Origin: Mobula hypostoma
Taxonomy: Eukaryota
Direction: 5' to 3'
Length of the DNA stretch: 64,000 bases
NCBI RefSeq assembly: GCF_963921235.1
Contig: NC_086097.1
Span: 95,110,001 to 95,174,000, forward strand
A model generated the notes under the pieces. It did not search any database, had not been told where the DNA came from, and worked only from the letters and a program-made list of their open reading frames with translations. This document shows positions 17,601-53,100 of this stretch, in pieces (the first letter of the stretch is position 1; the number at the start of each line of letters is the position of its first letter). The position numbers and the translations under genes are program-made.

Positions 17601-19147
17601 GGGAGTACTGGAAGGAATGTACAAAATTTTTGATGGAACAATGGCACATTAATTAAACTCTAAATGCCACCTCACTGCAGGTAATGAAATGAGAGGATGA
17701 CTACTCGAATATCTCACTTGAAAAGAGGCACTTCTCACACTGTAGCACTCTCTCAGTATGGCATTGAAGTGTCAGCCAAGATTATACAACATTTTTCAAG
17801 AATCCCTTCTCTAAGATCATTCTGCACTAAAATATTTCCATCAGATAACAGTATCTACAGACATCGGAAAGAATTTGGAAGACTACAGCATATGGTCCAT
17901 AAAGTCCAGATTTTGGTTTCAAAGATAAAGCGCAGAAGTACAGGCACAAGCCTGCTCAGAGATGTTATGCTTGGATTGGGATCTGATGTGGTTGAAGTGA
18001 ATAAACTCTGGGAAACAGGAATGCTACATTCAGTTGAAGAATGCCTTTATCTGCACTGTGTCATTTCTGGTATGCTGCAGTGTTATCCAAAGTAACCACT
18101 CAGTGAAACAGCCAACGAGCTGGGCCAGAGTCACGTTGGGGCCTTACTAATTCAAACACTTAGATTTATGTAATCTCTTCCATAAGTTCAAGATGTTTTA
18201 TAAGCATTGAAATCTTTCTAGAGTGCATTTATAAAGCAGGGATCAGCAGCATTTTTCCATGCATTAGAAGACATTGTTTGTTTGCACAACAAAGTGCAAA
18301 CTACCAGATAATTTTAACATTTGGATTCCACAACTCAATTCAAATTTCAAATTTGGAAAGGTTATGAAATTGGGGAAATACAGCAAAGAACTCATGGCCC
18401 GTGGAGCAGGAGCATTTTGTGATGACACAGAGGACTTTGAGCTTACCCATCAAACACAGAGTTGGTGGATTCCACCTGAACCAACCACCCTATCAAAACC
18501 TAGTGCCTGTCTGTAGCAGAACCTGCTGGTCCCACATTGATCTCGTCAGCTTCCTCAGAACTGGAATGGAAACAAGTCTTCCTCAATTCCAAGGGACTAC
18601 TCAAGAAGAAAGATGAAACACCAATCTACAGCCAGTTACCAAAAGCTTGCCACTTGTTCTTAAACAGGTCAGTCGCTATTCCATTATTTTCATTAATCAT
18701 AGAGTGGCACAGGACAGAAAACGGCCCTTCAGCTCGCTGACTGTATTGTACATCCATATTAATCCTATCTGCCCTCATTAGATCTGTATCTTTCAGTGCC
18801 TTCCTATATCAGGGTCTGTTTAAATTCCTGTTAAACATAGTAATTGCATCTGATTCATCACATTTTCTGGGTGCAATTTCTGCCTGTTACAACATGATGC
18901 GGCCAACAGTCACATCTTCACCTCTTCTCACCTTTCTGTATTTTGCAGGGACTGCTCACTCTGTGACTCACTGGGCCCCTCTCTGTTACTACGCACCACT
19001 TCCCATCCATGGCACTTGCAGATGTTCCACCTCCCTTTCACCTCTTTCCTACACCTTCATCCAAGGACTCAACAGTCATTCCAGACAAAGCAGCAATTCA
19101 CTTGTACTTCTCCCAACCTCGTCAAGCCAACCATATGATCTTAAGTC

Positions 19148-19840
19148 AAACAACAGGAATTCTGCAGATGCTGGAAATTCAAGCAACACACATCAAAGTT
19201 GCTGGTGAACGCAGCAGGCCAGGCAGCATCTATAGGAAGAGGTGCAATCGACGTTTCAGGCTGAGACCCTTCGTCAGGACTAACTGAAGGAAGAGTGAGA
19301 AGGGATTTGAAAGCTGGAGGGGGAGGGGGAGATGCAAAATGATAGGAGAAGACAGGAGGGGGAGGGATAGAGCCGAGAGCTGGACAGGTGATAGGCAAAA
19401 GGGGATACGAGAGGATCATGGGACAGGAGGTCCGGGAAGAAAGATGGGGGGGGGTGACCCAGAGGATGGGCAAGACGTATATTCAGAGGGACAGAGGGAG
19501 AAAAAGGAGAGTGAGAGAAAGAATGTGTGCATAAAAATGAGTAACAGCTGGGGTACGAGGGGGAGGTGGGGCCTAGCGGAAGTTAGAGAAGTCAATGTTC
19601 ATGCCATCAGGTTGGAGGCTACCCAGACAGAATATAAGGTGTTGTTCCTCCAACCTGAGTGTGGCTTCATCTTTACAGTAGAGGAGGCCGTGGATAGACA
19701 TGTCAGAATGGGAATGGGATGTGGAATTAAAATGTGTGGCCACTGGGAGATCCTGCTTTCTCTGGCGGACAGAGCGTAGATGTTCAGCAAAGCGGTCTCC
19801 CAGTCTGCGTCGGGTCTCACCAATATACAAAAGGCCACAT
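19148..19840 (-). mobile_element. Penelope-like element 3' part (GIY-YIG C-terminus), present in the left arm only
   Basis: ORF 19573-19830 (YIGETRRRLGDRFAEHLRSV…EEQHLIF). The empty site is at ~51140-51155. Confidence 0.88.
19246..19285 (-). ncRNA. Minimal type-I hammerhead ribozyme motif (Penelope-associated)
   Basis: agtc-CTGACGA-agg gtctcag cct-GAAA-CGTC-gatt, with a palindromic ACGU stem III. Confidence 0.7.
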
Positions 19841-22066
19841 CACTCTGTGCTTTGAAAACTCTTCACCCAGGTCTGAGGAAACTTGATTATCCCAAAAAAT
19901 TGACTACTTTCCCTTTCCACAGATGCTGCTTGACTAGCTGAGATCTTCCAGCGTTTTCTGCTTTTCTTTCAAAATTCTATCAGGTCCTTGGGATTTTCCT
20001 GTTTTCAGGCCTATGAACTTATGTATCTAGTAGTTTTTCTTTAATGGTACTAATCTCTTTCACTTTATAAGTTCTGGATACTTGGTTTTCTGATACTTCA
20101 AAAGATTTTGGTGATTTCTGGGAAGATAATACAAATTATTTATCTAATTCCTCTGTTATTTTTTTCTATCTTCATCTATAAGGAATATTAAATTGTACAC
20201 TTGTACTTTCACTTTTACATACTTACGGAAGCTCGTGTTGACTGTTTAGTCTCATATACTTTTTTTTTCTTCCTTTATCAATTTCTTGGTCATTTCTTCA
20301 ACGAATTCAAAAACAAATGTGGTCTGTGGACTTCCTATTTTGCCTGAAAACTTTATAAGTATTTTCATTAGATTTGATATTCCCTCCGCTTCTATGTACT
20401 AGCCACCTATCAGTTCCCAGCCTCTGTCTCACAGCTTCCTTTCACTTCATGGTCATTCTCCCCCTGCATTCTCAGCCCTAATGCAGGGCTTTGACCCAAA
20501 ACATTGACTTTCCTTTTGCCTCTACAATTGCTTCGTCACCCATTGACTACTCTCTAGCAGTTTATCTTTTCCTCTGGGTTCCAGCACCTGCTGCCTCTTT
20601 GGTCTCCTGGACCACTTGTGTTTCTGTAAAGAGATATATTTTTGTTGCAAAGCACATCATATTTCTGGAAAAGATGGTCCTTGTCTTTCCACTTTTCCCA
20701 GTCTGCCATTCATGCCTTTGGTTTCCTTTGTTTGGGTTGAAAGCCTGAGCACATGATTCTATCCCTTGAACCCAATAATATTTTGCCAAAGCTTTGGCTT
20801 TGGGTAGGCCATTACTTACCCATAAATGAACACAGCTTGATTACAATGGATAGGTCACAAAATATTGAAGTTAACGCTAATTTCCCAAAATTTTGATAAA
20901 TTGCTGCATAAAATTTTGTGCAACAGGTTAAACCAATAAATTATGAGCAATTCTCAAACCACTGGAGGAATGAAATGAATCACAGCAGCATCTGTGGGGG
21001 GAATTGGACATGTGATGTTTTGGGTCAAGTCTGTTATTCTGAACTGAAAGATATAGGGAGATGGTCAGTAGAAAGAGGAGGAGGAAGGGGTGGGGTGAGA
21101 GCTGGCAGGTGATAGGTGGATCCATGTAACTGGGGGTGATAGAATAGGGCTAGAAGCTGGGAGCTGATTGGTGGAGGTGACAAGGGCTGAATATGATGGA
21201 ATTTGATAGGAGAGGAAGGTGAATCATGGGATAAAGAGAGGAGTGTGGGAGAGCAGAGGGGAATAGAACAGAGGGAAGCCAGTATAATGAGTTGTGGCAT
21301 AAGGGGCAGATGGAGAGAGTGGAGTGGAAGGAGACATGGTGACAGGGGCCAAGTGTTGCAGGTGTTGTTTTGTTGCATCTGTAGTCTTTTGTTGTTTCTA
21401 AACTACAGGCAATTCCAGGGTAGATTCCAAATATCTCCTCAATTTTGTGCTCTCTGCCATAGAGTCATAGAGAGATATGGCATGGAAACAGGAGCCTGGG
21501 CCCACTGAGTCTACACTGAACATCAGCTACCATTTACACTAATCCCCACATTCACATCAATGCACTTATCTTCCACCACATGCTGAAACACTCAAGGAAA
21601 TATACAGTGGCCAGTTAACCCACCAACCTGCATATCTTTGGGGTGTAGGAAGAAATCAGAGCCCACTGAGGAAATATATGTGGTGACAGGGAAAACATGT
21701 TAACTCTCAACAGAGGTACTGGAGGCCAGGACTGAACCCAGGTCTCTGGATTTGTACGGTAGAGGCTCTATTATCTACACCACTGTGCATCGTTGACTTC
21801 AACACCACTGGGTTAGTGATGGAGAAGTAGCATCCAGGCCTCACAACCCAGCCACTCACCTGTGAATGCTGCTGGAAAATGCAGATGCATTGGGGTTGAC
21901 TGCAGTGTACTCTTCTAAGGATACCTTTGACATAGCGAACAAACAGTGTTTGTGATGTACAGCAGGATTTCCAGTCTGGGAAAAGTGAGAATCTTATACA
22001 AGGTGTTAATCGTAACCTCAGAATGACTTACTGGCACTTTGCAGACGTTGAAGTACTTTTGAAATA

Positions 22067-22222
22067 CAGTGGATTCCAATTAATTGGGACCAGTATATTT
22101 TGTTCCACTTGTGCAGCCGCCCCAATTATCTGAAGTTTCATAGAAATAGTTTAAAAGGTTTAAAAAAGACAAACTGAGAAACAAATTATGTAGTTAAATG
22201 AAATACAGATCAAATTTGAACA
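22067..22222 (-). mobile_element. Tigger-like MITE, first part (continues at 30017-30445 after a 7.8 kb nested insertion)
   Basis: TA|CAGTGGATTCC terminus. Joining gaaca|ttaccaatac restores the sequence seen in the intact copies. Confidence 0.8.
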
Positions 22223-22223
22223 G

Positions 22224-22542
22224 CAGCCAATCAAGAGATTGGGAGCGAGAGAAGAGGTGACTCTCACAATCGGTGAGTGTGCATTAAAAAGCATTGCTTC
22301 ACTGGAACTTCAGTGTTTGCACAGCAGTCAGTCAGAGATTGTGAGCAAGAAAAGAGGTGACTCACACATTTGCATGGGTGCAGTAAAAAGCAGCACTTTG
22401 TGGAAGTTTCAGCGTTTGAACAACCACCAATCAGAAACTGAGAGTAAGGGAAGAGGTGACTCACATAGGTCTTATGGTCTTGTGAAATGCATTAAAAAGT
22501 AGTGCTTTGCAAGAGTTTTGCCAGTTGAACATCGATCAATCA
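22224..22542 (+). repeat. Three diverged ~100-115 bp tandem monomers with CCAAT / TGACTC / TATA-like motifs
   Basis: cagccaatca…gaagaggtgactc…gcattaaaaag…gtttgaaca recurs three times. Confidence 0.75.
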
Positions 22543-23500
22543 GAATCAGGTACAGTATCACCATATTTCGTGAAATTCATCATCTTAGCGGCAGCAGTAC
22601 AATTCAATGCATGATAATATAGGGAAAAAATAAATAAGTAAATCAATGACAGTAAGTATATCTATGCACATTAAATTTAAAAATGTGCAAAAACAGAAAT
22701 AATAAAAGTGAGGTAGTGTTCATGGGTTCAATGTCCATTTAGAAATCAGATAGCAGAGGGGAAGAAACTGTTCCTGAATCACTGAGTGTGTGCCTTCAGG
22801 TCCTTCCTACCTGATGGTAACAATGAGAAGAGGGCATGTCCAGAGGGATGGGGGTCCTTACTGATGGACGCCACCTTTCTGAGGTACCACTCCTTGAAGA
22901 TGTCTTGAATACTAAGGACCCAAGATGGAGCTGACTAATTTTACAACTTTCTGTAGCTTCTTTCAATCCTATACAGTAGCTCCCCATACCAGACAGTAAT
23001 GCAGGCTGTCAGAATGCTCTGCACAGTACATTTGTAGAAGTTTGATTGTCTTAGGTGATAAATCAAATCTCCTCAAACTTCTAATGAAATACAGCCACTG
23101 TCTTGCCTTCTTTATAGCTGCATCAGTAGGTTGGTCCCAGGATAGATCCTCAGCGATATTGAAACCCAGGAACTTAAAATTGCTCACTCTCCCCACATCT
23201 GATCCCTCTATGAGGACTGGTGTGTGTTCTCACTCTTTCTGAAGTCCATAATCAACTCTTTAGTCTTACTGACAGTGAGTGCAAAGTTGTTGCTGTGGCA
23301 CCACTCAACTAGCTGGTATATCTCACTCCTATATGCCCTCTCGCCTCCATCTGAGATTCTGCCGACAATGGTTATATCATCAGCAAATTTAGAGATGGCA
23401 CTTGAGCTATGCCTAGCCACACATTCATGGGTAGCTCACACATTCAGCTCAAATCCCTGAGGTGCACCAGTGTTGATTGTCAGCAGGGAAGAGATATTAA
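22543..23500 (-). mobile_element. Rex1/Babar LINE 3' half
   Basis: KFADD and FKFLG motifs (ORFs 23208-23420 and 22969-23196), with a (ctgatt)n tail. Confidence 0.85.
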
Positions 23501-23625
23501 TACCAATCCACTCAAAGGTTTCAAAGATACATTTAATATCAGAGAAATATATACAATATACATTTTGAAATTCTTTTCCTTTGCAAACATCCACGAAAAC
23601 AGGAGCGCCCCAAAGAATGAATGAC

Positions 23626-24030
23626 AGTGAGGTCTCACGAGTGCTTTATCGAGTCTCAACATCACAGCCCTGCTCTTATATTCTATACCTCTAGAAATGA
23701 ATGCCAACATTGCATTTGCCTTCTCCACCACCGACTCAACTTGGAGGTTAACCTTTAGCGTATCTTGCACAAGGACTTCCAAATCCCTTTGTATCTCTTC
23801 ATTTTGAATTCTCTCCCCATCTAAATAATAGTCTGCCTGTTTATTTCTTCCACCAAAGTGTATGACCATACACTTTCCAACATTGTATTTGATTTGTCAC
23901 TTCTTTGCCCATTCCCCTAAACTATCTAAGACTCTCTGCAGGCTCTCTGCTTCCTCAACACTGCCCACTCCTCCAACTATCTTTGTACCATCGGCAAATT
24001 TAGCCACAAATCCATTAATCCCATATTCCA
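23626..24030 (-). mobile_element. CR1 RT fragment
   Basis: HFGGRNK…QRDLEVLV…LAFISRGIEYK. Confidence 0.8.
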
Positions 24031-25864
24031 AATCAGATGCCAGGCAGGATAGATGAGGTCTCCTTTTGCAGGATGTGGAAAGGCAGGGGGAACTCCAGTG
24101 TCCTTGATGATTTCATCTGCACGATGTGGTACATATAGGTACCAAATACAAAGATAGGAAGAGGCACGAGATTCTGCAAAGTGAGTGCAGGGAGTTAGGT
24201 CCTAAGTTGGAAGGCAAGATCTCTAGGGTTGTGATCTCAGGATTGAGGCCAGAAATAGGAAGATCATACAGTTTAACACATAGCTAAGGAGTTCGTGTAG
24301 GAGGAAGGGCTTCAGATTTTTAGATCATTGGGCTCTCTTCCAGGGAAGGTGGAACATGTACAGAAGGGATAGTTTGTATCTTCGCTGGAGGGGGGTCTAA
24401 TATCCTAGTGGGAGGGATTGCTAGCACTGTACAGAGTAGGATAAACTAGGGGGATGGGAAGCAGAATGCCAGATCAGCTAGCAGCTGTGGAGGCTAATGT
24501 TGGTAAGACCTCAGACAAAGTCAGGAATCAAACGGTTGAGCATGGTGCGACTAGTGTCCTGAGCTGAAGATTATTGAAGGCAGGTGTGCTCAGGTCATGG
24601 ATCAACACATGGATTTATGATACTGGAGCCATCAGTGAGACTTGGTTGTAGGAGGGGTAAAACTAGTAGCTCAATATACAGGGGATCCGTTGTTTTAGAT
24701 GTGATAAGAGTGGGAAGGGGTGGCATTACTAGTCAGGGAAATTGTCAGGCAGTGCTCAGTCAGAACCTACTTGAGAACTCGTCTAGTGAGGCTTTATGGA
24801 TGGAAATGAGGAATAAGAAAGAGAGTGCGCGATACTTGATCTGCTATGAGGGAATGATACAGGGCAGGTGACAGAAGTTTGTGTAGGGGAATATTTTGCC
24901 TATAGTGACCATAATGCTATTAGCTTCAAGGTATGGAAAGGAGTAGGTCTGGACCTCGGGTTGAGATTCTAATTGGAGAAAGGCCAATTTTGATGGTATC
25001 AGAAAGGACTGGGACAGGCTGTTTTCTGGAAAAGATGTACTTATTAAGTGGGAGGCCTTTAAAAGTGAAATTTTGAGACTACAAAGCTTGCATGTGCCTA
25101 TCAGCATAAAAGGCAAAGATAACAGGTTTTGGGAAACCCTGGTTTTCAAGCGATATTAAGGCTCTGGTTAAGAAAAAAAAGGAGGTGCATAGCAAGTATA
25201 GGCAGATAGGAAGAAATGAGGAGCATAAGAAATGCAAGAGAAGGAAATCAAATCAGGAGAGCTAACACAGGGCATGTGGTTGCTCTAGCAGACAAGATGA
25301 AGGAGAACCCTAAGGGCTTCCACAGACATGTTAAGAGGAAAAGGGACAAAATTGGTCCCTGGTAGACTAGAATGGTAATCTATGCATGGAGCTGAAAGAG
25401 ATGGGGAGATCTTAAATAGATATTTTGCATCTGTATTTACTCAGAAGATGGTCACGGAGGTTATAGAAGTGAGGCAAAGCAGCAGCGAGGTCATGGACCC
25501 TAAACAGAATACAGAAGAGGAGGTGTTTGCTGTCTTGAGGCAAATTAGGGTGGACAAATCCCTTGGCCCAGGCAAGGTGTTCCCTCAGATCCTGAGGGAG
25601 GCAAGTGCTGGGGCCCTAGCAAAGATATTTAGATCATCCTTGGTGACAGGTGAGGTGCTGGAGGATTGGAGGATAGCCAGTGTTTTTTCCGCTGTTTAAG
25701 AAAGGCTCTCAGAATAAACCAGAAAACTGTAGGCCTGTGAGCCTGACCTCAGTAGTGGGAAGGTTACAGTGACTATAAAAAGTATTCACTCTCCTCCCCT
25801 TGGAAGTGGAAAAGTTACTGGTAAGTATTCTAAGAGAACAGATATATGAGTATTTGGAAATACC

Positions 25865-28031
25865 TATAAATACAAATACCTATGTCAGGATGCTACTTTT
25901 TGACTATGGCTCAGCATTTAACACCATCATTCCCACAGTCCTGATCAAAAAGCTACAGAACCCAGGCCTCTGTACCTCCCTCTGCATCCGGATCCTTCAC
26001 TTCCTAACCGGAAGACCACAATCTGTGTGGATTGGAAATAACATCACCACCTTGTTGACAAATAACACTGCCGCTGCACAGGGATGTGTGCTTAGCCCAC
26101 TGCTCTACTCTCTCTACACTCATGACTGTGTGGCTAGACTCTTACACTGAACGTCAACAAGACCAAAGAGCTGATTGTGGATCACAAAGAGGGTAAAACG
26201 AGGGAACACAAACCAATCCTCATAGAGGGATCAGAAGAGTGAGCAATTTCAAGTTCCTGGTCAATACCTGGATGCAACACATTGATGCAGCTATAAAGGA
26301 GGAAAGACAGTGGCTATATTTCATTAGGAGCTTGAGGAGATTTGTTTCTTTAACTAAAACACTCAAAAACTTCTACACATGTACTGTGAAGAGTATTCTG
26401 ACAGGCTGCATCACCATCTAGTATGTGTGGGGCTATTGCACAAGATCAAAGTAAGTTGCAGAAATTTGTAAATTTAGTCATCTCCATCATGGGTACCAGC
26501 CTCTGTAATATCCAAGTCATCTTCAAGGAGCAGGGCCTTAGGAAGGCGGCATCCATCATTAAGAATCTCCACCACCCAGAACGTGCCCTCTTCACATTGT
26601 TACTGTTGGGAAGGAGGTACAGGAGCCTAAAGGCACACACTCAGTGATTCAGGAACAGTTTCTTCCCCTCTGCCATCCCATTCCTTGGACATCGAACCCA
26701 TGAACACTACCCCACTACATTTTTTATTTCTGTTATTCTGCACTACTTATTTTAACCTAACTACGGTGGCATGCAAAAGTTTGGGCACCCCGGTCAGAAT
26801 TTCTGTCACTGTGAATAGCGAAGCGAGTAAAAGATGGCCTGATTTCCAAAAGGCATAAGGTTAAAGATGACACATTTCTTTAATATTTTAAGCAAGAAAA
26901 CTTTTCTATTTCCATCTTTTACATTTTCAAAATAACAAAAAAGGAAAAGGGCCCGAAACAAAAGTTTGGGCACCCTGCATGGTCAGTTCTTAGTAACACC
27001 CCTTTGGCAAGTATCACAGCTTGTAAACGCTTTCTGTAGCCAGCTAAGAGTCTTTCAATTCTTGTTCGGGGGATTTTCACCCATTCTTCCTTGCAAAAGG
27101 CTTCTAGTTCTGTGAGATTCTTGGGCCGTCTTGCATGCACTGCTCTTTTGAGGTCTATCCACAGATTTTCAATGATGTTTAGGTCGGGGGATTGTGAGGG
27201 CCATGGCAAAACCTTCAGCCTTCAGCTCTTGAGGTAGTCCATTGTGGATTTTGAGGTGTGCTTAGGTTCATTATCCTATTGTAGAAGCCACCCTCTTTTC
27301 ATCTTCGGCTTTTTTACAGACGATGTGATGTTTGCTTCCAGAATTTGCTGTTATTTAATTGAATTCATTCTTCCCTCTACCAGTGAAATGTTCCCTGTGC
27401 CATTGGCTGCAACACAAGCCCAAAGCATGATCGATCCACCCTCGTGCGTTACAGTTGGAGAGGGTTTTTTTCCATAAAATTCTGCACCCTTTTTTCTCCA
27501 AACATACCTTTGCTTATTGCGGCCAAAAAGTTCTATTCAAAAGGTTCAAAGGAACATCTAAACAAGCCTGATGCATTTTGGAAACAAGTCCTGTGGACTG
27601 AAGAAGTTAAAATAGAACTTTCTGGCCGCATTTACAAGCTGTGATACTTGCCAAAGGGGGTGTTACTAAGTACTGACCATGCAGGATGCCCAAACTTTTG
27701 CTTCGAGCCCTTTTCCTTTTTTGTTATTTTGAAAATGTAAAAGACGGAAATAAAAAAGTTTTCTTGCTTAAAATATTAAAGAACTGTGTCGTCTTTAACT
27801 TTATGCCTTTTGGAAATCAATTCATCTTTTACTCGCTTAGCTATTCACAGTAACAGAAATGTTGACTGGGGTGATCAAACTTTTGCATGCCACTGTATTT
27901 AATAGACATATATACACTTAATGTCACTCTGTTTTTCACTATACTTACTTATTATGTATTTCATTTTTCTGCTGCCGTAAAGTTAACAAATTTCATGACG
28001 TATGCCAGTGATGTTAAATCTGATTCTGATT
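25865..28031 (+). mobile_element. Rex1/Babar LINE (RT to 3' tail) nested in CR1; hosts a Tc1 derivative
   Basis: [12 protein letters not shown] and [16 protein letters not shown] motifs, with a ctgattctgatt tail. Confidence 0.85.
26764..27895 (-). mobile_element. Non-autonomous Tc1 element with ~265-bp inverted ends
   Basis: TA|CGGTGGCATGCAAAAGTTTG…CAAACTTTTGCATGCCACTG|TA. ORF 26919-27209 contains WPSQSPDLNIIENLW, the C-terminus of a DD34E transposase. Confidence 0.9.
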
Positions 28032-28234
28032 GTGGATAGACAGGGACTGATTAGGGATAGTCAGCATAGCTTTGTGCATGGTAGGTCATGTCTAACCAAT
28101 CTTACAGAGTTTTTCAAGGCAGTCACCAGTAAAGTTGATGAAGGTAAGACAATTGTTGTCTACATTGACTTCAGCAAGGCATTTGACATGGTTCCGCATG
28201 GCAGATTGGTCAAAATTCAGTTGATTGGAATTAT

Positions 28235-28912
28235 ATTAGATTAGATTGTGAGGACAATCAGTCCTCGTTTATTGTCATTTAGAAATGCATGCATTAAAAA
28301 ATGATACAATGTTCCTCCAGAATGATATCACAGAAACACAAGACAGACCAAGACTAAAACTGACAAAAACCACATAATTATAACATATAGTTACAACAGT
28401 GCAAAGCAATACCATAATTTGATAAGAGCAGACCATGGGCACGGTAAAAAAAAAGTCTCAAAGTCCTGATAGCCCCAACATCTCACGCAGACGGTGGAAG
28501 GGAGAAACTCTCCCTGCCATGAGCTTCCAGCTCCACAAACTTGTCGATGCAGCACCCTGGAACCAGATCACAGTCCGACTCTGAGTCCATCTGAAAACTT
28601 CGAGCTTCCGACCAGCCCTCCGACACCGAGCACCGAGCACCATCTCTGCCGAGCGCTTCGACCCCGGCCCCGGCCGCCAAGCAACAGGCAAAGCCGAGGA
28701 TTCGGGGCCTTCCCCTCCGGAGATTTTGGATCACACAGTAGCAGCAGCAGTGAAGCAGGCATTTCAGAAGTTTCACCAGATGTTCCTCCGTGCTCTCACG
28801 TCTGCCTCCATTAAATCAGGATTGTGAATGGCCTCCTACTTGACAGATTACAGATATTCATCACCAGAGAGGCTGTGCATGCTGCGTCGCGCCACCATCT
28901 TCTCCTCCTCCC
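28235..28912 (-). mobile_element. Short non-autonomous retroelement with (aatct)n tail nested in CR1
   Basis: Interrupts the CR1 RT. It has an attagattagatt tail, a GC-rich body and a 5' aagatggtgg motif. Confidence 0.55.
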
Positions 28913-30016
28913 AACGTGCAAAGTGATGTAGCAAATTGGATTGGACATTGCCTTTGCAGGAGAAGCCAGAGAGTGGTAGTAGATGGTAGTAGAGTTGCCT
29001 CTCTGACTGGAGGTCTGTGACTAGTAGAGTGCCACAGGGATTGGTGCTGGGTCTATTGTTGTTTGTCATCTGTATCAACGATCTGGATGATAATGTAGTG
29101 AACTGGACAGCAAAGAGAACTATCAAAGCTTGCAGCGGGATCAGGACCAGCTGGAAGAATAGGCTAAAAAATGGCAGATGGAATTTAATGCAGACAATTG
29201 TGAGGTTTTACACTTTGGGAGGACCAACGAAGGTGGGGCTTACGCAGTGAATGGTAGGGCACTGAGGAGTGCAGTGATACAAAGATATCTGGGAATACAG
29301 GCCCATAATTAATTGATAGTGGCGTCACAGGTAAATACAGTCAAAAATAAAGTTTTTGGCACATTGACCTTCATAGATCAAAATATTGAGTACAGGAGTT
29401 GGGATGTTACGTTGAAGTTGTGTAAGACATTGGTGAAGCCTAATTTGGAGTATTGTGTGCAGCTTTAGTCACCTACCTACAGGAAAAATGTAAATAAGAT
29501 TGAAAGAGAACAGAGAAAATTTACAAGGATGTTGCCAGGAATGGAGGGCCTGTGTTATAAGGAAAGATTGAATAGGTTAGAAGTTGATTCCCTAGAACGT
29601 AGAAGATTGAGGAGAGATTTGACAGAGGTATAAAAATTACAAGATGTACAAGATCTGATAGGGGTATAGATAGGGTAAATGCAAGCAGGCTTTTTTCACT
29701 GAGGGTGTGTGAGACTACAACTAGAGGTCATGGGTTAAGGGTGAAAGGTGAAATGTTAATGGGAACACGAGGGGAAACTTCTTCACTCAGAGAGTGGTGT
29801 GACTGTGGCACAAGCTGCCAGCACAAGTGATGGATGCAATTTTGATTTCAACCTTTAAGAGAAGTTTGGATAGGTACATGGATACAAGAGGTATGGAGGG
29901 CCATGGTCTGGGTGCAGATCGATGGAACTAGGCAGCTTAAATGGTACAGCAGAGACTAGATGGGCTGAAGAGCCTGCTTCTGTGTTGTACTTCTCTATGA
30001 CTCTATGGTTCTATGA

Positions 30017-30445
30017 TTACCAATACTAGTACAGTTCTACAAAACTGTGCATTAGTTCCTAATAGTTATCGACAGAGGTATTCATTCAGTGTACGCTGAC
30101 GTGTTCTTTTGATTGATTATAAATGAACAAAACCAGCCCAGGTACCTAGTGCAGATAGTGGACTGGCTTTAAACACTGCTTTCAACAATTGCATCCTCTA
30201 AATCTTCATTTCAATTGTAACATTCAAGATGATTGTTGATACCTTCAGATTCTTATTGAAGTAGTGAAATCGTTATATTTTCACTCCTGGCCGTTTTTGA
30301 CATCTCCAAGCCTGAATGCTTGAAATCCCAGTGAGCAAAACAGTTTTGAATTGTCTATATTTAATACTTGCCAACTATCAGTGACAAAAGTTACCATTTT
30401 TTGAACACAAACATGCAAGTTATACTATTTAAAAACTGTTTGCTC
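30017..30445 (-). mobile_element. Tigger-like MITE, second part
   Basis: Reverse-complement similarity to 11480-11915 and 39020-39435. Confidence 0.75.
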
Positions 30446-42429: not shown

Positions 42430-43020
42430 GAATCTACCCTGGCATTGCCTGCAGTTTAGAAACAAGAGACCACAGATGCAACAAAACAACACCTGCAACA
42501 CTTGGCCCCGGTCACCATGTCTCCTTCCACTCCACTCTCTCCATCTGCCCCTTATGCCACAACTCATTATACTGGCTTCCCTCTGTTCTATTCCCCTCTG
42601 CTCTCCCACACTCCTCTCTTTATCCCATGATTCACCTTCCTCTCCTATCAAATTCCATCATATTCAGCCCTTGTCACCTCCACCAATCAGCTCCCAGCTT
42701 CTAGCCCTATTCTATCACCCCCAGTTACATGGATCCACCTATCACCTGCCAGCTCTCACCCCACCCCTTCCTCCTCCTCTTTCTACTGACCATCTCCCTA
42801 TATCTTTCAGTTCAGAATAATGGACTTGACCCAAAACATCACATGTCCAATTCCCCCCACAGATGCTGCTGATTCATTTCATTCCTCCAGTGGTTTGAGA
42901 ATTGCTCAGCATTTATTAGTTTAACCTGTTGCACAAAATTTTATGCAGCAATTTATCAAAAGTTTAGGAAATTAGCATTAACTCCAATATTTTGTGATCT
43001 ATCCATTGTAATCAAGCTGT

Positions 43021-43239
43021 TGTGGCGACCCACTTTCTACACAAGCGAACCGGCTCACAAAATAGCCTGCGTGCAGGGAGAGACTTTTGTAATGCACCTC
43101 TGACGTCATTTCCGCCCAGAGAGGGCTGGAAGGGAACTGCTTAAAAGCCAGTGCCGCGAAGTTTGAATAAACGAATCTCGAGTGCGACTTACAGACTGCG
43201 TGTCGTTATTTCTAGCTCTGTGTGTAGCACATCACTACA
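43021..43239 (+). repeat. 5' LTR (219 bp)
   Basis: Direct repeat of 49912-50129. Contains TGACGTCA and AATAAA. Confidence 0.95.
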
Positions 43240-43240
43240 T

Positions 43241-43254
43241 TGGTGACCCCAACG
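43241..43254 (+). promoter_or_regulatory. Primer binding site, tRNA-Trp-like
   Basis: TGGTGACCCCAACG just after the LTR, compared with the tRNA-Trp PBS TGGTGACCCCGACG. Confidence 0.8.
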
Positions 43255-43278
43255 GTCCAAACGGAATTTGGACCAAAG

Positions 43279-43977
43279 ATGATCGACTCTTCATCTGTTC
43301 ACACAGTTTTGCTAAAACTGCCAACTTTCTGGACGCTGCGACCACACACGTGGTTTGACCAAGCAGAAGCCCAGATTCGGCAGATATCTTCTGATTCCAC
43401 ACGTTACTATTACGCGGTGAGCTCCCTTGACCAGGAGACAGCCGCACGGGTTGGGGATTTCATACAGCCACCCCCTGAAGAAGGCAAATATGCAGCATTC
43501 AAAGCGCTGCTCATAGAGACCTTTGGCCTCTCATGGTATGAGCGAGGTGCCCGCTTGCTGCACCTGGACTGTTTGGAAGACAGGCTGCTGTCAGCATTAA
43601 TGAACGAGATGCTGGCCCTGGCTGAAGGACACAAGCCCTGCCTCATGTTTGAGCAGGTGTTCCTAGAACAACTGCCCGAGGACATACATCTGCTGCTGGC
43701 CGATGCAGATTTCAGTAACCCCCGGAAGGTGGCGGCCCGGGCAGATGTGCTGTGGAAAGCCAAGAGGGAGAGCGGGGCGTCCATCGGACAGATTACCAAG
43801 CCACACGCCCAACAGCAGGCCAGATCAGGCCCAGCAACGGAGCGCACACAACCCAGAGGCAGGAGTGAGGAGGCCAATGGACAGTGGTGTTTCTACCACC
43901 AGCGGTGGGGCACAGAAGCTCGCCATTGTCGCCCGCCCTGCAAGTTCCCAGGAAACGCCAGGGCCAGCCGCCGCTAA
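43279..43977 (+). CDS. gag: Gypsy Gag (intact ORF) with a Cx2Hx9Cx3C knuckle
   Basis: LKLPTFW…WFDQAE at the N-terminus and CFYHQRWGTEARHCRPPC at the C-terminus. Confidence 0.85.
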   Translation: MIDSSSVHTVLLKLPTFWTLRPHTWFDQAEAQIRQISSDSTRYYYAVSSLDQETAARVGDFIQPPPEEGKYAAFKALLIETFGLSWYERGARLLHLDCLEDRLLSALMNEMLALAEGHKPCLMFEQVFLEQLPEDIHLLLADADFSNPRKVAARADVLWKAKRESGASIGQITKPHAQQQARSGPATERTQPRGRSEEANGQWCFYHQRWGTEARHCRPPCKFPGNARASRR

Positions 43978-45657
43978 TGGCTACGGGACAAACAGTCGGG
44001 ACGCCGGTTCTTGGTCAACACCGGAGCGGAGATCAGCGTCGTACCCCCCGACGGGGTATGACACCCACAACAGGGCGACGGGACCCACCCTGAAGGCCAC
44101 AAACAGCAGCACGATTCGGACCTACGGCACCCGCACAGTGCAGCTAAAGTTTGGCGCCAGCCAGTTCACGTGGGACTTCACACTGGCCGCAGTGGCCCAA
44201 CCACTCCTGGGGGTGGACTTCTTGCAAGCCCACAGCCTGCTGGTTGACTTGCAAGGGAAAAGACTGGTTCATGCCTAGACTTTTCAGACATTCTCCCTGG
44301 GTGAAGCCAAGTTGCCGGCCCCACACCTGGACTCCATCATGCTGTCTGACAATGAATTCATCAGAATCCTGGCGGACTTTCCATCGGTTCTGGCACTGCA
44401 GTTCACGGCAGCCATGACCAGACACAGAGTACAGCACCACATTCCGACCCAGGGACCACCCCTCCACACCCACGCATGAAGGCTCCCCCCGGACAAGCTC
44501 CGCCTGGCGAAGGAGGAGTTCAAGAGGATGAAGGAATTGGGAATCGTACGGCGGTCCGACAGCCCATGGGCCTCCCCCTTGCACATGGTGCCCAAAGCAG
44601 CCAGGGGCTGGAGACCATGTGGCGACTACCGCAGACTGAACGAGGCTACAACTCCAGACTGCTATCCCGTGCCGCACATACAGGACTTCACAGCAAACCT
44701 GCATGAGGCAAGCATCTTTTCCAAAGTAGACCATGTCCGGGGGTACCATCGAATCCCGGTACACCCTAAAGACATCCCCAAAACAGCACTCATCACCCCG
44801 TTCGGCCTGTTCGAATTCCTCCGAATGTGGTTCGGCCTGAAGAATGCCACACAGACGTTCCAGCGACTAATGAATGCGGTGGGTCGTGACCTGGACTTTG
44901 CATTCATCTATTTGGACGACATCCTCATAGCCAGCAGTAGTTGTCAGGAGCATCTGTCCCACCTCTGCCAGCTCTACTCCCGCCTGAGTGATTTCGGCCT
45001 CACGATCAACCCAGCCAAATGTCAGTTCAGACTCGACACCATCGACTTCCTGGGCCACAGGATTACCAAAATACGGGGCAACACCTCTGCCCGCCAAGGT
45101 AGACGCGATCCGCCACTTTGCCCGGCCCAACACAGTCAAAGGCCTGCAGGAGTTTGTTGGTATGGTGAACTTCCACCACCGCTTCCTCCCCTCAGCAGCC
45201 CGTATCATGCACCCTTTGTACACCCTGATGTCGGGTAAAGGCAAGGACATTACTTGGGACGAAGAGGCCGCGGCCACGTTCATTAAAGCCAAGGTAGCCT
45301 TGGCAGATGCCACGATGCTGGTGAACCCCAGAACGGATGTTCCAACTGCCCTCACAGTGGATGCATCCAACACAGCAGTCGGTGGGGTGCTGGAGCAACT
45401 CATTGAGAGGCACTGGCAACCCCCGCCATTCTTCAGCAGGCACCTACAGCCACCCGAACTCAAGTACAGTGCTTTCGACCGGGAGCTGTTGGTACTATAT
45501 CTGGCAATCCGGTATTTCAGGTACTTCTTAGAAGGCAGGCCGTTCACCGCGTTCACAGACCACAAACCGTTGACCTTCGCGTTCACGAAGGCGTCCGATC
45601 CCTGGTCAGCCCACCAGCAGTGACATCTGTCCTACATCTCCGAGTACATGACGGACA
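43950..45657 (+). pseudogene. pol: Gypsy pol (protease, RT, RNase H) with stops and frameshifts
   Basis: FLVNTGAEIS (protease, catalytic D changed to N), SPWASPLHMV, YLDD, TVDAS, YSAFDRELL and TDHKPL motifs. Confidence 0.92.
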
Positions 45658-48556
45658 TAGAACATAGAACATAGAACAGTACAGCACAGTTCAGGCCCTT
45701 CGGCCCACAATGTTTTGCCAACCCTCAAACCCTGCCTCTCATATAAGCCCCCACCTTAGATTCCTCCATATACCTGTCTAGTAGTCTCTTAAAATTCACT
45801 AGTGTATCTGCCTCCACCACTGAAGGCAGTGCATTCCATGCACCAACCACTCTCTGAGTAAAAAACCTTCCTCTAATATCCCCCTTGAACTTCCCACCCC
45901 ATACCTTAAAGCCATGTCCTCTTGTATTGAGCAGTGGTGCCCTGGGGAAGAGGCGCTGGCTATCCACTCTATCTATTCCTCTTATTATCTTGTACACCTC
46001 TATCATATCTCCTCTCATCCTCCTTCTCTCCAAAGAGTAAAGCCCTAGCTCCCTTAATCTCTGATCATAATGCATACTTTCTAAACCAGGCAGCATTCTG
46101 GTAAATCTCCTCTGTACCCTTTCCAATGCTTCCACATCCTTCCTATAGTGAGGTGACCAGAACTGGACACAGTACTCCAAGTGTGGCCTAACCAGAGTTT
46201 TATAGAGCTGCATCATTACACGCAACTCTTAAACTCTATCCCTCGACTTATGAAAGCTAACACCCCATAAGCTTTCTTAACTACCCTATCCACCTGTGAG
46301 GCAACTTTCAGGGATCTGTGGACATGTACCCCCAGATCCCTCTGCTCCTCCACACTACCAAGTATCCTGCCATTTACTTTGTACTCTGCCTTGGAGTTTG
46401 TCCTTCCAAAGTGTACCATCTCACACTTCTCCGGGTTGAACTCCATCTGCCACTTCTCAGCCCACTCCTGCATCCTATCAATGTCTCTCTGCAATCTTTG
46501 ACAATCCTCTACACTATCTACAACACCACCAACCTTTGTGTCATCTGCAAACTTGCCAACCCACCCTTCTACCCCCACATCCAGGTCGTTAATAAAAATC
46601 ACGAAAAGTAGAGGTCCCAGAATAGAACCTTGTGGGACACCACTAGTCACAATCCTCCAATCTGAATGTACTCCCTCCACCACCACCCTCTGCCTTCTGC
46701 AGGCAAGCCAATTCTGAATCCACCCAGCCAAATTTCCCTGGATCCCATGCCTTCTAACTTTCTGAATAAGCCTACCGTGTGGAACCTTGTCAAATGCCTT
46801 ACTAAAATCCATATAGGTCACATCCACTGCACTACCCTCATCTATATGCCTGGTCACCTCCTCAAAGAACTCTATCAGGCTTGTTAGACATGATCTGCCC
46901 TTCACAAAGCCATGCTGACTGTCCCTGATCAGACCACGATTCTCTAAATGCCTATAGATCCTATCTCTAAGAATCTTTTCCAACAGCTTTCCCACCACAG
47001 ACATAAGGCTCACTGGTCTATAATTACCCGGACTATCCCTACTACCTTTTTTGAACAATGGGACAACATTCGCCTCCCTCCAATCCTCCGGTACCATTCC
47101 CGTGGACAACGAGGACATAAAGATCCTAGCCAGAGGCTCAGCAATCTCTTCTCTCGCCTCGTGGAGCAGCCTGGGGAATATTCCGTCAGGCCCCGGGGAC
47201 TTATCTATCCTAATGTATTTTAACAACTCCAACACCTCCTCTCCCTTAATATCAACATGCTCCAGAACATCAACCTCACTCATATTGTCCTCACCATCAT
47301 CAAGTTCCCTCTCATTGGTGAATACCAAAGAGAAGTATTCATTGAGGACCTTGCTCACTTCCACAGCCTCCAGGCACATCTTCCCACCTTTATCTCTAAT
47401 CGGTCCTACCTTCACTCCTGTCATCCTTTTTTTCTTCACATAATTGAAGAATGCCTTGGGGTTTTCCTTTACCCTACTTGCCAAGGCCTTCTCATGCCCC
47501 CTTCTTGCTCTTCTCAGCCCCTTCTTAAGCTCCTTTCTTGCTTCCCTATATTCCTCAATAGACCCATCTGATCCTTGCTTCCTGAACCTCATGTATGCAG
47601 CCTTCTTCCACCTGACTAGATTTTCCACCTCACTTGTCACCCATGGTTCCTTCACCCTACCATTCTTTATCTTCCTCATCGGAACAAATTTATCCCTAAC
47701 ATCCTGCAAGAGATCTCTAAACATCAACCACATGTCCATAGTACATTTCCCTGCAAAAACATCATCCCAATTCACACCCGCAAGTTCTAGCCTTATAGCC
47801 TCATAATTTGCCTCTCCCCAATTAAAAATTTTCCTGTCCTTTCTGATTCTATCCTTTTCCATGATAATGCTAAAGGCCAGGGAGCGTTGGTCACTGTCCC
47901 CCAGATGCCCACCCACTGAGAGATCTGTGACCTGACCTGGTTCATTACCTAGTACTGCATTCCCCCTGGTCAGCCTGTCCACATACTGTGACAGGAATCC
48001 GTCCTGGACACACTTAACAAACTCTGCCCCATCTAAACCCTTGGAACTAATCAGGTGCCAATCAATATTAGGGAAGTTAAAGTTACCCATGATAACAACA
48101 CTGTTATTTTTGCACCTTTCCAAAATCTGCCTCCCAATCTGCTCTTCTGTATCCCTGCTGCTACCAGGGGGCCTATAGAATGTCCCCAGTAGAGTAACTG
48201 CTCCCTTCCTGTTCCTGACTTCCACCCATATTGACTCAAAAGAGAATCCTGCTACATTACCCACCCTTTCTGTAGCTGTAATAGTATCCCTGACCAGTAA
48301 TGCCACCCCTCCTCCCCTTTTTCCGCCCTCTCTATCCCTTGTAAAGCACTGAAATCCAGGAATATTGAGAATCCATTCCTGCCCTGGTGCCAGCCAAGTC
48401 TCTGTAATGGCCACTACATCATAATTCCATGTATGTATCCAAGCTCTCAGTTCATCACCTTTGTTCCTGATGCTTCTTGCATTGAGGTACACACACTTCA
48501 GCCCTTCTACTTTACTGTCTTTACACTGTTTATTCTGCTTCTCTTTCCTCAAAGCC
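45658..48556 (-). mobile_element. Young CR1 LINE inserted in the Gypsy pol; nearly intact ORF2 (EN+RT), no ORF1
   Basis: ORFs 46216-48603 and 45725-46225, with a (gttctat)n tail. Removing it restores the Gypsy sequence …TDIQHVSGKDNIVVDALSR. Confidence 0.95.
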
Positions 48557-48561
48557 GTGTC

Positions 48562-49850
48562 TCCAGCATGTCTCAGGAAAGGACAACATCGTGGTGGACG
48601 CACTCTCCAGACCAGCTATCCAGGCCCTGTCCCAGGGGGTGGACTATGCAGCACTAGCGGAAGCGCAGCAGGCAGACGATGAGATGTCCAGCTACAGGAC
48701 CGCAGTCTCGGGTTTGCAGCTGCAAGACTTCATCGTAGGCCCAGGTGAGAGGACCCTCCTGTGTGACGTAGCTACCGGCCAACCTCGCCCCATCGTCCCG
48801 GCAGCCTGGTGGCGGCGAGTTATTGACTCCATACACAGCTTGGTGCATCCATCTATCAGGACAACCGTCCGATTGGTCTCCAGCAAATTTGTGTGGCACA
48901 GACTTCGCGAACAGGTCAGCAAATGGGCCAAAACATGCACGCAGTGCCAAACGGCCAAGGTGCAGCGGCACACCAAAGCCCCGCCGCAGCGGTTCGAACC
49001 CACCCGCCGGAGGTTCGACCACATTCGTGTGGATATCGTGGGGCCCCTGCCAGTGTCGCGAGGAGCGCGGTACCTCCTAACTATGATAGACCGGTTCACC
49101 AGATGGCCAGAGACAGTCCCGCTCACCGACACCACCTCCGAATCCTGCACCCGAGCACTGATCGCAACCTGGGTAGCACGCTTCAGGATACCGGCCCACA
49201 TTACCTCCGACAGGGGCGCCCAGTTCACCTCCAGCCTGTGGTCGGCTATGGCCAGCCTGTTGGGAACACAATTACACCACACAACTGCCTACCACCCACA
49301 GTCGAACGAACTGGTGGAACGCTTCCACCGTCACTTAAAGTCGGCTCTCATGGCCCGCCTGGAGGGGCCTAACTGGGTTGACGAACTTCCCTGGGTCCTG
49401 CTTGGAATCCGCACGGCACCCAAGGAGGATCTGCACACCTCGTCGGCCGAGTTGGTGTACGGCACACTCCTGGTCGTCCCAGGAGTGTTCATACCAGCCT
49501 CAAGGGGGCAAGAGGAAGAACCCGCAGCAGTCCTGGACAGACTATGCTAAAGGCTCGGCAACCTGGCCCCTGTACCAACTTCACAGCATGGACAAATCCT
49601 GACCTGCGTACCCAAAGACCTGCAGAACTGTAAGTTCGTATTCGTATGACGGGGCAGACACCGGGCACCACTACAGCAGCCGTACGAGGGGCCATTCAAC
49701 GTGATCAGTAACAACGGGTGCACGTACGTTCTGGACATTGGGGGGCAAGAGGAGGTTTTCACGGTGGACCGACTAACACCGGCCCATGTGGACTTGGCAC
49801 AGTCAGCCGAGGTTCAGGCACCGTGGCGCAGAGGCAGACCACCCAAACAG
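48562..49850 (+). pseudogene. Gypsy integrase (HHCC zinc finger, DDE core, GPY/F-like tail)
   Basis: H-x3-H…CTQC, VDIVGP, ITSDRGAQF and VERFH motifs; YEGPF at ~49683. Confidence 0.92.
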
Positions 49851-49911
49851 AGACTGATCCAGACTGTGGACATTGGGGGTGTATCGCCGGCTCTGGGGGT
49901 GGCGGGGGTGT

Positions 49912-50129
49912 TGTGGCCACCCACTTTCTACACAAGCGAACCGGCTCACAAAATAGCCCGCACGCGGGGTGAGACTTTTGTAATACATTTCTGACGTCAT
50001 TTCCGCCTGGAGAGGGCTGGAAGGGAACTGCTTAAAAACCAGTGCTGTGAAGTTTGAATAAGCGAGTCTGGAGTGCGACTTACAGACTGCGTGTCATTAT
50101 TTCTAGCTGTGTGTGTACACATCGCTACA
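49912..50129 (+). repeat. 3' LTR (218 bp), preceded by a G-rich PPT
   Basis: Direct repeat of 43021-43239 with about 20 substitutions and 1 indel (hand count). Confidence 0.95.
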
Positions 50130-53100
50130 CTGTGTTCATTTATAGATAAGTAATGGCCTACCCAAAGTCAAAGCTTTGGCAAAATATTATTGGGTTCAAG
50201 GGAAAGAATCATGTGCTCAGGCTTTCAACCCAAACAAAGGAAACCAACAGCATGAATGGCAGACTGGGAAAAGTGGAAAGACAAGGACCATCTTTTCCAG
50301 AAATATGATGTGCTTTGCAACAAAAATACATCTCTTTACAGAAACACAAGTGGTCCAGGAGACCAAAGAGGCAGCAGGTGCTGGAACCCAGAGGAAAAGA
50401 TAAACTGCTAGAGAGTAGTCAATGGGTGACGAAGCAATTGTAGAGGCAAAAGGAAAGTCAATGTTTTGGGTCAAGGCCCTGCATTAGGGCTGAGACCATG
50501 AAATAAAAGTGAAAGGAAGCTATGAGACAGAGGCTGGGAAGTGATAGGGGGCCAGTACATAGAAGCAGGAGAGAGTATCAAATCTAGTGAAAATACTTAT
50601 AAAGTTTTCAGACAGAATTGCAAGTCCAGAGACTGTAATTATTTTAGAATTACTTTAAGGAATGACTAAGACATTGCTTAGGGAAGAAAAAAACGTTTAC
50701 GAGACTAAACAGTCAACATGAGCTTCTGTAAGTTATGTATTGGTTGAAGTACAAGTGTGCAATTTTAATATTCTTTATAGATGAAGATAGAAAGAAATTG
50801 CAACTGAAATAAAGAAATAACAGATGAATTAGACAAATAATTTGTATTATATTCAAAGAAGACACAAAAACTTTCTGAGATACCCGAGATCCAAGAGTCA
50901 AGAGCATGTAAAGTGAAAAAAAATTAGTGCCATTAAAGAAAAACTACTAGATACATCAATTCCTAGGTCTGAAAACAGGAAAATTCCCAAGAACATGATA
51001 GAATTTTGAAAGAAAATCAGAAATGCTGGAAGATCTCAGCCAGTTAAACAGCATCTGTGGAAAGGGAAACCAGTCAATGTTTGGGACAATCAAGACTCTT
51101 CAGACCTGGGCACAGAGTTTTCAAAGTATAGCTGGGTGACAAGTGAATTGCAAGACTTACAATCATATGGTTGGCTAGACTAGACTGGAAGAAGTACAAG
51201 TGAATTGCTGCTTCACTTGGAATGACTATTGAGTCCTTGGCTGGTGGGGAAGGAAAGAGGGCAGTTGGAACATCTCCTCCAAATGCATTGGGAAAATGCC
51301 ATGGGATGGGCAGTGGCGGGTAGTAACAGAACGTGGACCAGAGAGTCACAGAGTGACTGCAAAATGCAGAAAGTCAAGGAGAGGGGAAGATGTGACTGGT
51401 AGCCGGAAAATATTGTAACAGGCAGATATTGCAAAGCAATTGCTATGTTGAAAGCAATAGCTCACGGGGTGAAAGCTGAATATCAGAGAACCTCTGTCCT
51501 AGCAGAGAGGGGATGAAAATAGATATGCAGGAAATAGAAAAAATGTGGTTTAGAGCTCCATCTACTATGGTAAAGAGGAAGCAATGTTTCAATAAGAAGA
51601 AAGCCATTCAGAGCCACCTGGGGGAAGGCTAGATGTTCCTTAAATGAGAGTAACTCTCTCCATCACCTCTTCAGGTAGCACAATTCAGTCATTCAGACCC
51701 TATCCCTCTGTATGAAATAGTTCCCCTCAGACCTCCTCTAAACCTCTCACCTCTCATCTTAAATCTATATTGTACCTGCAGATCACAGAGCTGTCAAGAA
51801 TGGAATTAGTTTCACACTCTATTTGTATCCTGAAACTTTCCTTCACTCAAGGGATTTTGGTGATGGAACCTGCTTTTATCATTGTATCTCCAGTTGAGTT
51901 CTGCTTCATTTTAGAGACGCAGCAGTACCTCCTCCACCTCACTTATATAAACAGTACGTTGAGAAAAGCGTAGTCTCTGTTAAGAAACAGCAATCTTCTT
52001 GAGGATTAGACAACTAAATGTGGATCTGGGAAGTAATGTTTGCTGCCAAAGTAGAAGGTTGGTGATCTCACATCCACGGACAGGCATGGGAGTTGGTCTA
52101 TTAAAACAGCTCTCTCAGCAGGCCCAAGCTCTACATGTGGTGGACCACCAACAGCTCCGAAGCGCTAAGCAATTTGGAGCATTGCACTAGGGGCTCCCTA
52201 CAGCCAAAACGCTAGAGAAAAAAATCAAATATAAACAGGGAATATTGGAAAAGATTCAGCATGTCAGGCAGCATCTGTGTGATGAATAAGACCCTTTGAT
52301 AAAATGAGAAAGAGAGAAAACAAGTTAGTCTTCAGCAGGGTAGAAGGTAAGGGAGAGATGGGTAGGGTACAGGGAATATCTCTGCTGGAGTGAGGCCACA
52401 TGAGGTAATGTGGTAGTCAGAAGCAAACTATGCTCCTTTCTGCTAATGGCAGGGCTGTGGGGCATGTCCAGCATTCCGCAGCATAATAATGGTGATAAAT
52501 AAACTGAGCTTGAGAGAACAATTCTGCTCCTCTCCTCTGTTGATCTACTCCATTCTTTTTCTCGGTGTCTCAGTTTAAAGGCCTTTCCTCTAACACTGCA
52601 ACAGTGCCTCAGCCTTGTACTGGATCTCCAGATGAGTTTGTGGTCAGGTTGTTTGGAGCAGATTTTGAACTCCTGCCCATCTGACCCAGAGGCGAGATTG
52701 GTAGAAAATGAGCCACAATTTACATCAGACAGAGCTAAAGAATTGTTAGGTAAATATTGCAATAAAGATATTAAATAATGTTAGAATGAGCCATGAGACA
52801 ATTCAGCCAATTCCTTCTGACCAGCAATTGATTTTATATACAATTTTGAAGGAGTGGAATGAAAGGAATGGAAACCTCATAACTAAGTAATTCCTCCTAT
52901 AACCTTAGGCTACTACAAAGTGTTTTTTATTTTTTATTAATTTAGAAATACAGCACAGAACAGGCTCTTCTAGTCCAACAAGCTGCACCACTCAGCCACC
53001 CAGCTATTTAACCCTAACCTAATCACAGCACAATTTACAATGACTAATTAGCCTATTAACTGGCACATCTTTGGAATGTGGGGGGAAACCAGAGCACCCA

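Follow-up and report, generated by a model that had tools for sequence, protein, structure and literature searches.

In the palindromes of the Y chromosome, the arms are subject to arm-to-arm gene conversion. According to the part of Fawcett and Innan (2011, PMC3924837) that we consulted, conversion requires similarity over a few hundred bases and is halted by transposable element insertions and by large insertions or deletions (indels). Palindrome arms in primates are 8-140 kb long and up to 99.99% identical, and 21 of 26 palindromes carry protein genes, as far as the consulted sections of Jackson et al. (2021, PMC8327919) go. The locus described here, located in a 64,000-nucleotide stretch of contig NC_086097.1 (the window), is an inverted duplication of decayed repeats inside a single intron of RAD51B. 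Two tracts in its arms, 246 and 348 bp long, have most probably stayed alike through non-crossover ectopic gene conversion from arm to arm, over distances of 29.5 and 21.1 kb, respectively (the sequence-only reading of the window, which preceded this analysis, had put the distance at 18-30 kb). Insertions and indels have likely shut conversion off elsewhere in the arms. No published account of this RAD51B locus was found in a literature search that fell short of most subscription papers.

Self-BLAST and a global alignment of the arms with the private insertions removed yielded a colinear inverted match of about 3.1 kb without insertions, composed of decayed repeats, in agreement with the initial description of some 3 kb of such sequence, duplicated in inverted orientation within one RAD51B intron. 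The left-arm pieces 18872-19147, 19850-22222 and 30017-30444 pair with 51433-50134, 43020-42430 and 40236-39023 of the right arm. The colinearity over 3.1 kb, the shared junctions and a Penelope-like open reading frame (ORF) that ends at the same residue in both arms identify the arms as two copies from one duplication. The names Penelope, Rex1 and CR1 follow the earlier labels, with backing limited to domain and homolog matches. The pieces of the two arms are listed below, with arm differences given as mismatches per aligned site and, in brackets, the counts at non-CpG sites.

18872-20469: outer old layer of the left arm, 14-16% from right 51433-50496, starting abruptly inside a decayed Penelope-like ORF and broken by 19148-19849; 42/263 (34/249) in 18872-19147, 43/298 (40/293) in 19850-20150 and 43/305 (36/295) in 20151-20469
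20470-20715: homogenised tract 1, pairing with 50495-50250; 2/246 (2/244)
20716-21033: unconverted zone around the empty site (20832-20835) of a Gypsy insertion; 16/316, namely 6/120 (6/120) in 20716-20835 and 10/196 (7/192) in 20836-21033
21034-21381: homogenised tract 2, pairing with 42820-42473; 1/348 (0/346), with a 310-bp perfect run; 72% purine
21382-22065: middle layer, about 5% apart and about 9% beside the Rex1-like site; 12/136 in 21382-21520 and 24/481 (22/475) in 21521-22010
22066-22222: start of a non-coding transposon with terminal inverted repeats (TIRs), its insertion junction common to both arms, which are 10-11% apart here; 17/155
30017-30444: rest of the truncated left copy of this transposon, equidistant from the right and a third copy and thus a possible rather than a certain part of the duplication; 69/393
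39023-40236: inner piece of the right arm, the transposon copy of which continues to the second terminal repeat near 38801
42430-43020: 591-bp piece of the right arm between two insertions, containing tract 2
50130-51433: outer piece of the right arm, containing tract 1; the Penelope-like ORF runs beyond 51433 to about 51607 (tblastn, E 1.9e-8, 51607-51290)

Pyrimidines predominate in tract 1, and neither tract contains a canonical G-quadruplex motif; a 24-base pattern of the core had 0 matches in metagenome contigs. Within the core of each arm, a weak internal inverted match (20403-20563 against 20956-21119, 62%, E 9e-6) joins the two tracts, and there is a small self-inverted stretch at 20879-20952.

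Arm divergence is thus layered, with about 15% in the outer parts, about 5% in the middle and 3/594 in the two tracts together. The hand counts of the sequence-only reading proved exact (1/348 for 21034-21381, 8/366 for 20470-20835 and 20/218 for the Gypsy long terminal repeats, LTRs), as did its observation that identity falls near the Rex1-like insertion (4/40 and 8/96 mismatches beside it) and beyond 20470 (14-16% mismatches). The homogenised core that it had proposed stands for the two tracts but is not uniform, given that the zone at the Gypsy site lies between them; the difference between the tracts and this zone (3/594 vs 16/316) is significant (p=1e-5). The edges of the mosaic fall at an indel cluster at 20448-20469, at the Gypsy site and near the Rex1-like site. 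When the 68 events in the 1587 sites of 20470-22065 were shuffled, a perfect run of at least 310 bp was obtained in 2 of 100000 trials and a second run of at least 145 bp in 194 of 100000.

A clock for these layers is provided by one of the private insertions of the arms, which are as follows.

19148-19849, minus strand: younger Penelope-like insertion, left arm only, with a GIY-YIG-like ORF at 19573-19839; 89-98% to other copies in the window
22223-30016: nest of CR1-like and Rex1-like long interspersed nuclear element (LINE) fragments, left arm only, found by tblastn with ORFs of the window; empty site in the right arm
40237-42429, plus strand: Rex1-like LINE, right arm only, with RVT_1 and PF09004; its junction is a contig end in a second organism (B, below) too
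43021-50129, plus strand: broken Ty3/Gypsy-type LTR retrotransposon, right arm only, with Pfam reverse transcriptase, RNase H and then integrase; LTRs at 43021-43239 and 49912-50129

The Gypsy element is flanked by a 4-bp target duplication, and the same four bases are present once in the left arm, at 20832-20835; therefore, the element entered the right arm after the duplication, as had been claimed. Empty sites opposite the private insertions, which the sequence-only reading had also reported, are found for the Gypsy element and for the nest at 22223-30016 but not cleanly for the Penelope-like insertion, because its site in the right arm holds 27 extra bases. The nest itself had been taken for a single CR1, which it is not.

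The Gypsy LTRs differ at 20/218 sites (9.2%), 12 of them at CpG sites, which leaves 8/182 (4.4%). The zone around the Gypsy site has the same non-CpG divergence as the LTRs (13/312, p=1.0), whereas the two tracts are far below it (2/590, p=2.4e-4). The comparison with the LTRs is marginal for the whole core (15/902, p=0.04) and not significant for 20470-20835 (8/364, p=0.18). Hence the proposal of a core younger than the element inside it holds for the two tracts, but the 9% LTR figure on which it was built overstated the gap once CpG sites are removed, and only the two tracts are clearly younger than Gypsy. A CR1-like LINE (45656-48556, minus strand) nested in the Gypsy element retains an open frame of 799 codons; together with a copy at 8303-11204 (2.9 kb each, same orientation, matching ends, 4.3% apart, 3.3% at non-CpG sites), it offers a second clock, near the age of the LTRs.

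The left arm is contained in eight sequencing runs, four of an organism denoted A and four of an organism denoted B, with one sample each; the share of sampled words was 0.86-0.87 for A and 0.40-0.45 for B, and runs X9-X11, in which none was found, were left out. Contigs were placed on 20300-21500 for one run of A (X2) and three of B (X5, X6, X7), and copy number was read from this interval only. The divergence between A and B is about 2.1-2.5%, judged from the word shares. Both arm types are present in B: a left-type outer contig differs from the window in 3 letters of 144, a right-type outer contig of 2.5 kb carries the window's right alleles, and from run to run the allele is of the left or the right type at the 20448-20469 indel and at 20490, 20716/17, 20868/75/86 and 20942. 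At least 6 of the 16 arm differences in the Gypsy zone are also found in B. Furthermore, the Gypsy target site coincides to the base with a contig break in X6 (20832), and an X7 right-type contig stops matching at 21425, the Rex1-like site. The presence of both arm types and of breaks at both right-arm insertion sites indicates that the duplication and the Gypsy and Rex1-like insertions predate the A-B split.

Without exchange since that split, about 12.5 differences would be expected in the 594 tract sites, compared to the 3 that are seen (p=0.0016; 0.0002-0.01 for divergences of 2.5-1.7%); for tract 2 alone, p=0.006. The tracts have nevertheless changed between the species. At 12 sites in 20470-21381, B differs from both arms of the window. 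Six of these, in or beside the tracts and forming five clusters (20535, 21003, 21096, 21135, 21136 and 21252), have the same letter in the two window arms and a different one in all three B runs, and at 20680, 20750, 21081 and 21177 the B-specific letter is mixed among runs; 20815 (close to the Gypsy junction, in a stretch assembled for the left path only) and 20714 (inside a bubble shared by the arms) were left out of the count, as were 21409, 21419 and 21457, which lie outside the core. Unanimous clusters make up 5 of 9, against 1 in 7 of the visible ones expected if the bubbles affected a single arm and were resolved at random (p=0.005; 0.018 in the worst case tried). In X5, both 61-bp branches of an unresolved bubble (depth 5.4 each) carry a difference from the window, in all likelihood the one at 21096. 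The six A-B sites show no strong GC bias. The tracts thus change between species while the arms stay matched, which argues for concerted evolution and against plain conservation, a young element or an artefact. The anatomy, the layers, the target duplication, the presence of the locus in B and the letters that differ between the species are established. The claim of arm-to-arm conversion is thereby supported, and the second organism, the arms of which are unphased, supplies the cross-species pattern.

The sample of organism A is denoted S1. In run X2, one 913-bp contig covers exactly 20470-21382, at a depth of 18.5 compared to 13.8 and 13.2 in the flanks, and it has only two other letters, at 20761 and most likely at 20490, both of which are right-arm alleles of the window. 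This merged contig coincides with the matched region of the window and has no new letters, so that the arms merge as the window says and no hidden differences are visible. A left-type outer contig of A, which has one other letter, overlaps the merged contig over 20470-20499. Most likely, a left arm in S1 carries the right-arm letter at 20490, where the left arms of the window and of B agree on the other letter. Read indirectly from this contig overlap, 20490 is a candidate right-to-left conversion that is still segregating in S1.

Several observations count against conversion in the two tracts. The tract limits were chosen after inspection, which is the reason why the shuffle test was run, and a penalised change-point fit gave three segments only (15.2/3.7/15.7%), with the tracts not separated. 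The A-B divergence is a rough estimate, and tract 1 alone does not depart significantly from the A-B clock (p=0.11). Organism B is represented by one sample, with bubble-collapsed contigs and unphased arms, and the coin-flip model of bubble choice is our own; two of the five unanimous clusters (20535 and 21096) are CpG sites where parallel change is possible, and five differing letters in the long contigs of B could not be placed (under the repeat depth). Finally, the depth of the collapsed contig of A is 1.37 times that of its flanks, less than the 1.58 predicted from the window, and the window may have been assembled from S1.

These last two points, together with the fact that the evidence consists of short-read contigs rather than phased long reads, would also favour an assembly collapse or a polishing error as the origin of the near-identity of the tracts. 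This is highly improbable because hidden arm differences would appear as new letters in the X2 contig, in which the only two other letters are right-arm alleles, and because organism B, sequenced in a separate study, merges the arms in the same region (from 20414), at 1.2-1.4 times the single-arm depth. A young multi-copy element, inserted twice independently, could likewise produce two similar cores, and short pieces of both tracts (up to 60 bp) indeed resemble a common repeat tail that is present in hundreds of contigs. Over 20628-20955, however, each of four runs has a single contig path, at 88% likeness, which speaks against a young multi-copy element as the core; moreover, the match is colinear into the 5% and 15% layers, and the end of the Penelope-like ORF and the transposon junction are common to the arms. 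This explanation is effectively refuted. Thus, two of the three conditions that the sequence-only reading had named as fatal to conversion, collapse or polishing and a young multi-copy element, fail; the third, a non-CpG LTR divergence as low as that of the core, applies in part, as described above.

Two further alternatives depend on the gene setting, which is defined by two exons, found by short motifs and then confirmed against PDB sequences, a procedure that covers coding exons.

58546-58649, minus strand: RAD51B coding exon upstream of the intron; phmmer match of 58546-58647 to PDB RAD51B chains, residues 292-319, E 5.5e-9; AG/GT ends
4845-4923, minus strand: next RAD51B coding exon, 79 nt; PDB RAD51B residues 320-345, E 1.2e-4; AG/GT ends

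Given that the two exons encode consecutive RAD51B residues, both arms lie in one intron, of 53.6 kb, with no coding exon between them; non-coding or alternative exons may lie between the arms. In this setting, crossovers in the tracts could repeatedly flip the intervening 21-30 kb, with crossover-linked conversion homogenising the tracts. The inverted orientation of these near-identical sequences and the lack of an exon between them are compatible with such recurrent inversion, and precedents exist: in the consulted portions of the respective studies, 11 of 16 analysed human inverted repeats invert recurrently (PMC3961182), and a 24-kb flip/flop region of yeast behaves likewise (PMC9731477). 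The ends of the arms do not point in this direction. Penelope-like proteins align over the outer edge of the right arm to about 51607 (E 1.9e-8 and 1.5e-4), whereas at the left outer edge four of the five matching queries begin at 18872-18917 and one reaches weakly to 18710 (12 of 20 Penelope-like proteins were used in this search); the right arm has the whole TIR transposon, and in the left arm it is truncated at 30444. Alignment of the DNA of the arm ends with young Penelope-like copies of the window gave noise only. Both ends of the right arm are native, in that they run on into the flank, so the right locus is the source and the left one is the copy. A single flip would make native ends alternate; the number of flips in this haplotype is therefore either zero or even. 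A net inversion of the spacer in this haplotype is accordingly not seen, and recurrent inversion, which the sequence-only reading had offered beside conversion, is not supported; it could coexist with conversion but is unlikely. None of the contigs examined crosses a tract with phased sequence on either side. An origin of the duplication by staggered-break inversion was rejected on the same grounds, the native ends not alternating. A target-site duplication at the left copy was rejected as well: its flanks, 18820-18870 and 30450-30499, are alike as a direct repeat in 32 of 50 columns, too few for the age of the duplication.

The other alternative invokes selection that keeps the tracts complementary or conserved, with the arms forming a long RNA duplex in the pre-mRNA and 21-30 kb of the intron looped out between them. 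Both arms belong to one intron of one transcription unit, a perfect duplex of 310 bp is predicted, and the internal inverted match in each arm mentioned above (62%) would fit such a stem. If pairing were selected, mismatches biased to G·U would be expected, but transitions between the arms yield, on the transcribed strand, 19 G·U vs 18 A·C in 20470-22065 (p=1.0), and the preference test in the core (8 vs 5) gives p=0.58. In addition, the A-B rate of change in the tracts is at least about half that of the flanks, near-zero mismatch exceeds, by our reasoning, what a stem needs, and the tracts overlap common repeat-tail sequence; an Rfam search of the whole 64000-base window produced 0 matches. 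Selection for an RNA stem is therefore quite improbable. A more elaborate scenario appears very improbable: conversion and selection would jointly maintain a putative perfect 310-bp RAD51B pre-mRNA stem made of dead transposon tails, looping out 21-30 kb of the 54-kb intron and edited or aiding splicing, with the arm born by recombination between two independent copies of the small transposon that copied 2.7 kb of flank.

Non-crossover conversion between the arms is thus the preferred explanation, and we infer this process, the order of events and their neutrality as follows. The right locus would have been copied in inverted orientation to 18872-30444, most likely by templated DNA repair, possibly primed between two copies of the TIR transposon. 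One correction to the sequence-only reading concerns 30018-30440, which resembles a third copy of the transposon as closely as it does the right arm: among 384 sites, 35 private changes belong to the left copy, 37 to the right and 41 to the third (11476-11909). Either this segment was inserted independently and primed the copying, or the duplication followed soon after the spread of the family; both are possible. The outer parts would have escaped exchange early and are now about 15% apart, whereas a middle block of 1.6 kb would have stayed matched until the level of about 5%. The Rex1-like and Gypsy insertions in the right arm would then have cut this block into pieces, two of which, long enough to pair, would have kept converting after the A-B split, leaving beside the Gypsy element an unconverted zone of 120 bp on one side and up to about 200 bp on the other. 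Conversion would in this way be self-sustaining at high identity and cut off by indels and insertions. Since the copies are inverted and no exon lies between them, exchange costs nothing and no function is needed. There is no new mechanism and no sign of function here; this is a known process in a gene-free setting.

Several features of the mobile elements in the window complement this description. The closest named matches of the Penelope-like ORF are from Mobula (95%) and Hypanus (90%), which makes a ray the likely source of the window, and several matches carry PF26215, the Pfam match of this ORF to GIY-YIG being under the cut-off (E 0.015). Pfam gave no match for 42353-42817, 18741-19205 and 19288-19776. 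Of four frames searched at the outer end of the right arm, three had no match either, and one has weak zinc-finger matches under the cut-off. The left-arm LINE nest starts with a 99-bp unit repeated 2.5 times (22215-22465). Outside the arms, a DNA transposon at 54444-56071 has 228-bp terminal inverted repeats that are 95% alike and a DDE_3 frame at 54746-55357. The Rex1-like copies at 35474-37511 and 59888-62668 are 94-95% alike; the latter is split by a Penelope-like insertion (about 61565-62267) with a tandem tail of 77-bp period. At 62696-62948, a 50-bp unit is repeated 5.1 times (94% match).

The locus provides a clean natural record of gene-free ectopic conversion in what is likely a cartilaginous fish. 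In this record, pieces of 250-350 bp still convert across 21-30 kb, an LTR-dated insertion of 7 kb leaves an unconverted zone of 120-200 bp, and exchange has outlived a duplication with about six times the age of the A-B split. The locus can serve as a test case for models of minimum pairing length and of barriers to conversion, and it cautions against dating repeats by their identity.

Among known systems, the repeats that mediate recurrent inversion, at FLNA-EMD (HsInv0389) and in other human cases (PMC3961182, PMC8327919) and in the flip/flop region of yeast chromosome XIV (PMC9731477), are similar in that, in the consulted parts of these reports, they lie inverted at a distance of 20-30 kb, are homogenised within each species and predate the species split. 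These systems flip gene-bearing segments for which both orientations are known, in contrast to a spacer here that lacks exons and shows no net inversion. The primate X/Y palindromes (Jackson et al., 2021, PMC8327919), as presented in the consulted sections, share the inverted arms around a spacer and the similarity within species; the likeness to palindrome arms drawn by the sequence-only reading holds for the mechanism but not for size, identity or gene content, because the arms here are 3.1 kb long, mostly 85-95% identical and gene-free, with less than 600 bp still matched. The duplicates of Fawcett and Innan (PMC3924837), in the consulted part of that account, resemble these arms in that the copies remain close while the species diverge, a few hundred similar bases are involved and exchange stops at insertions. 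Compared to those duplicates, the present case consists of non-coding repeat debris in an intron and combines three layers of divergence and an LTR-dated barrier in one locus.

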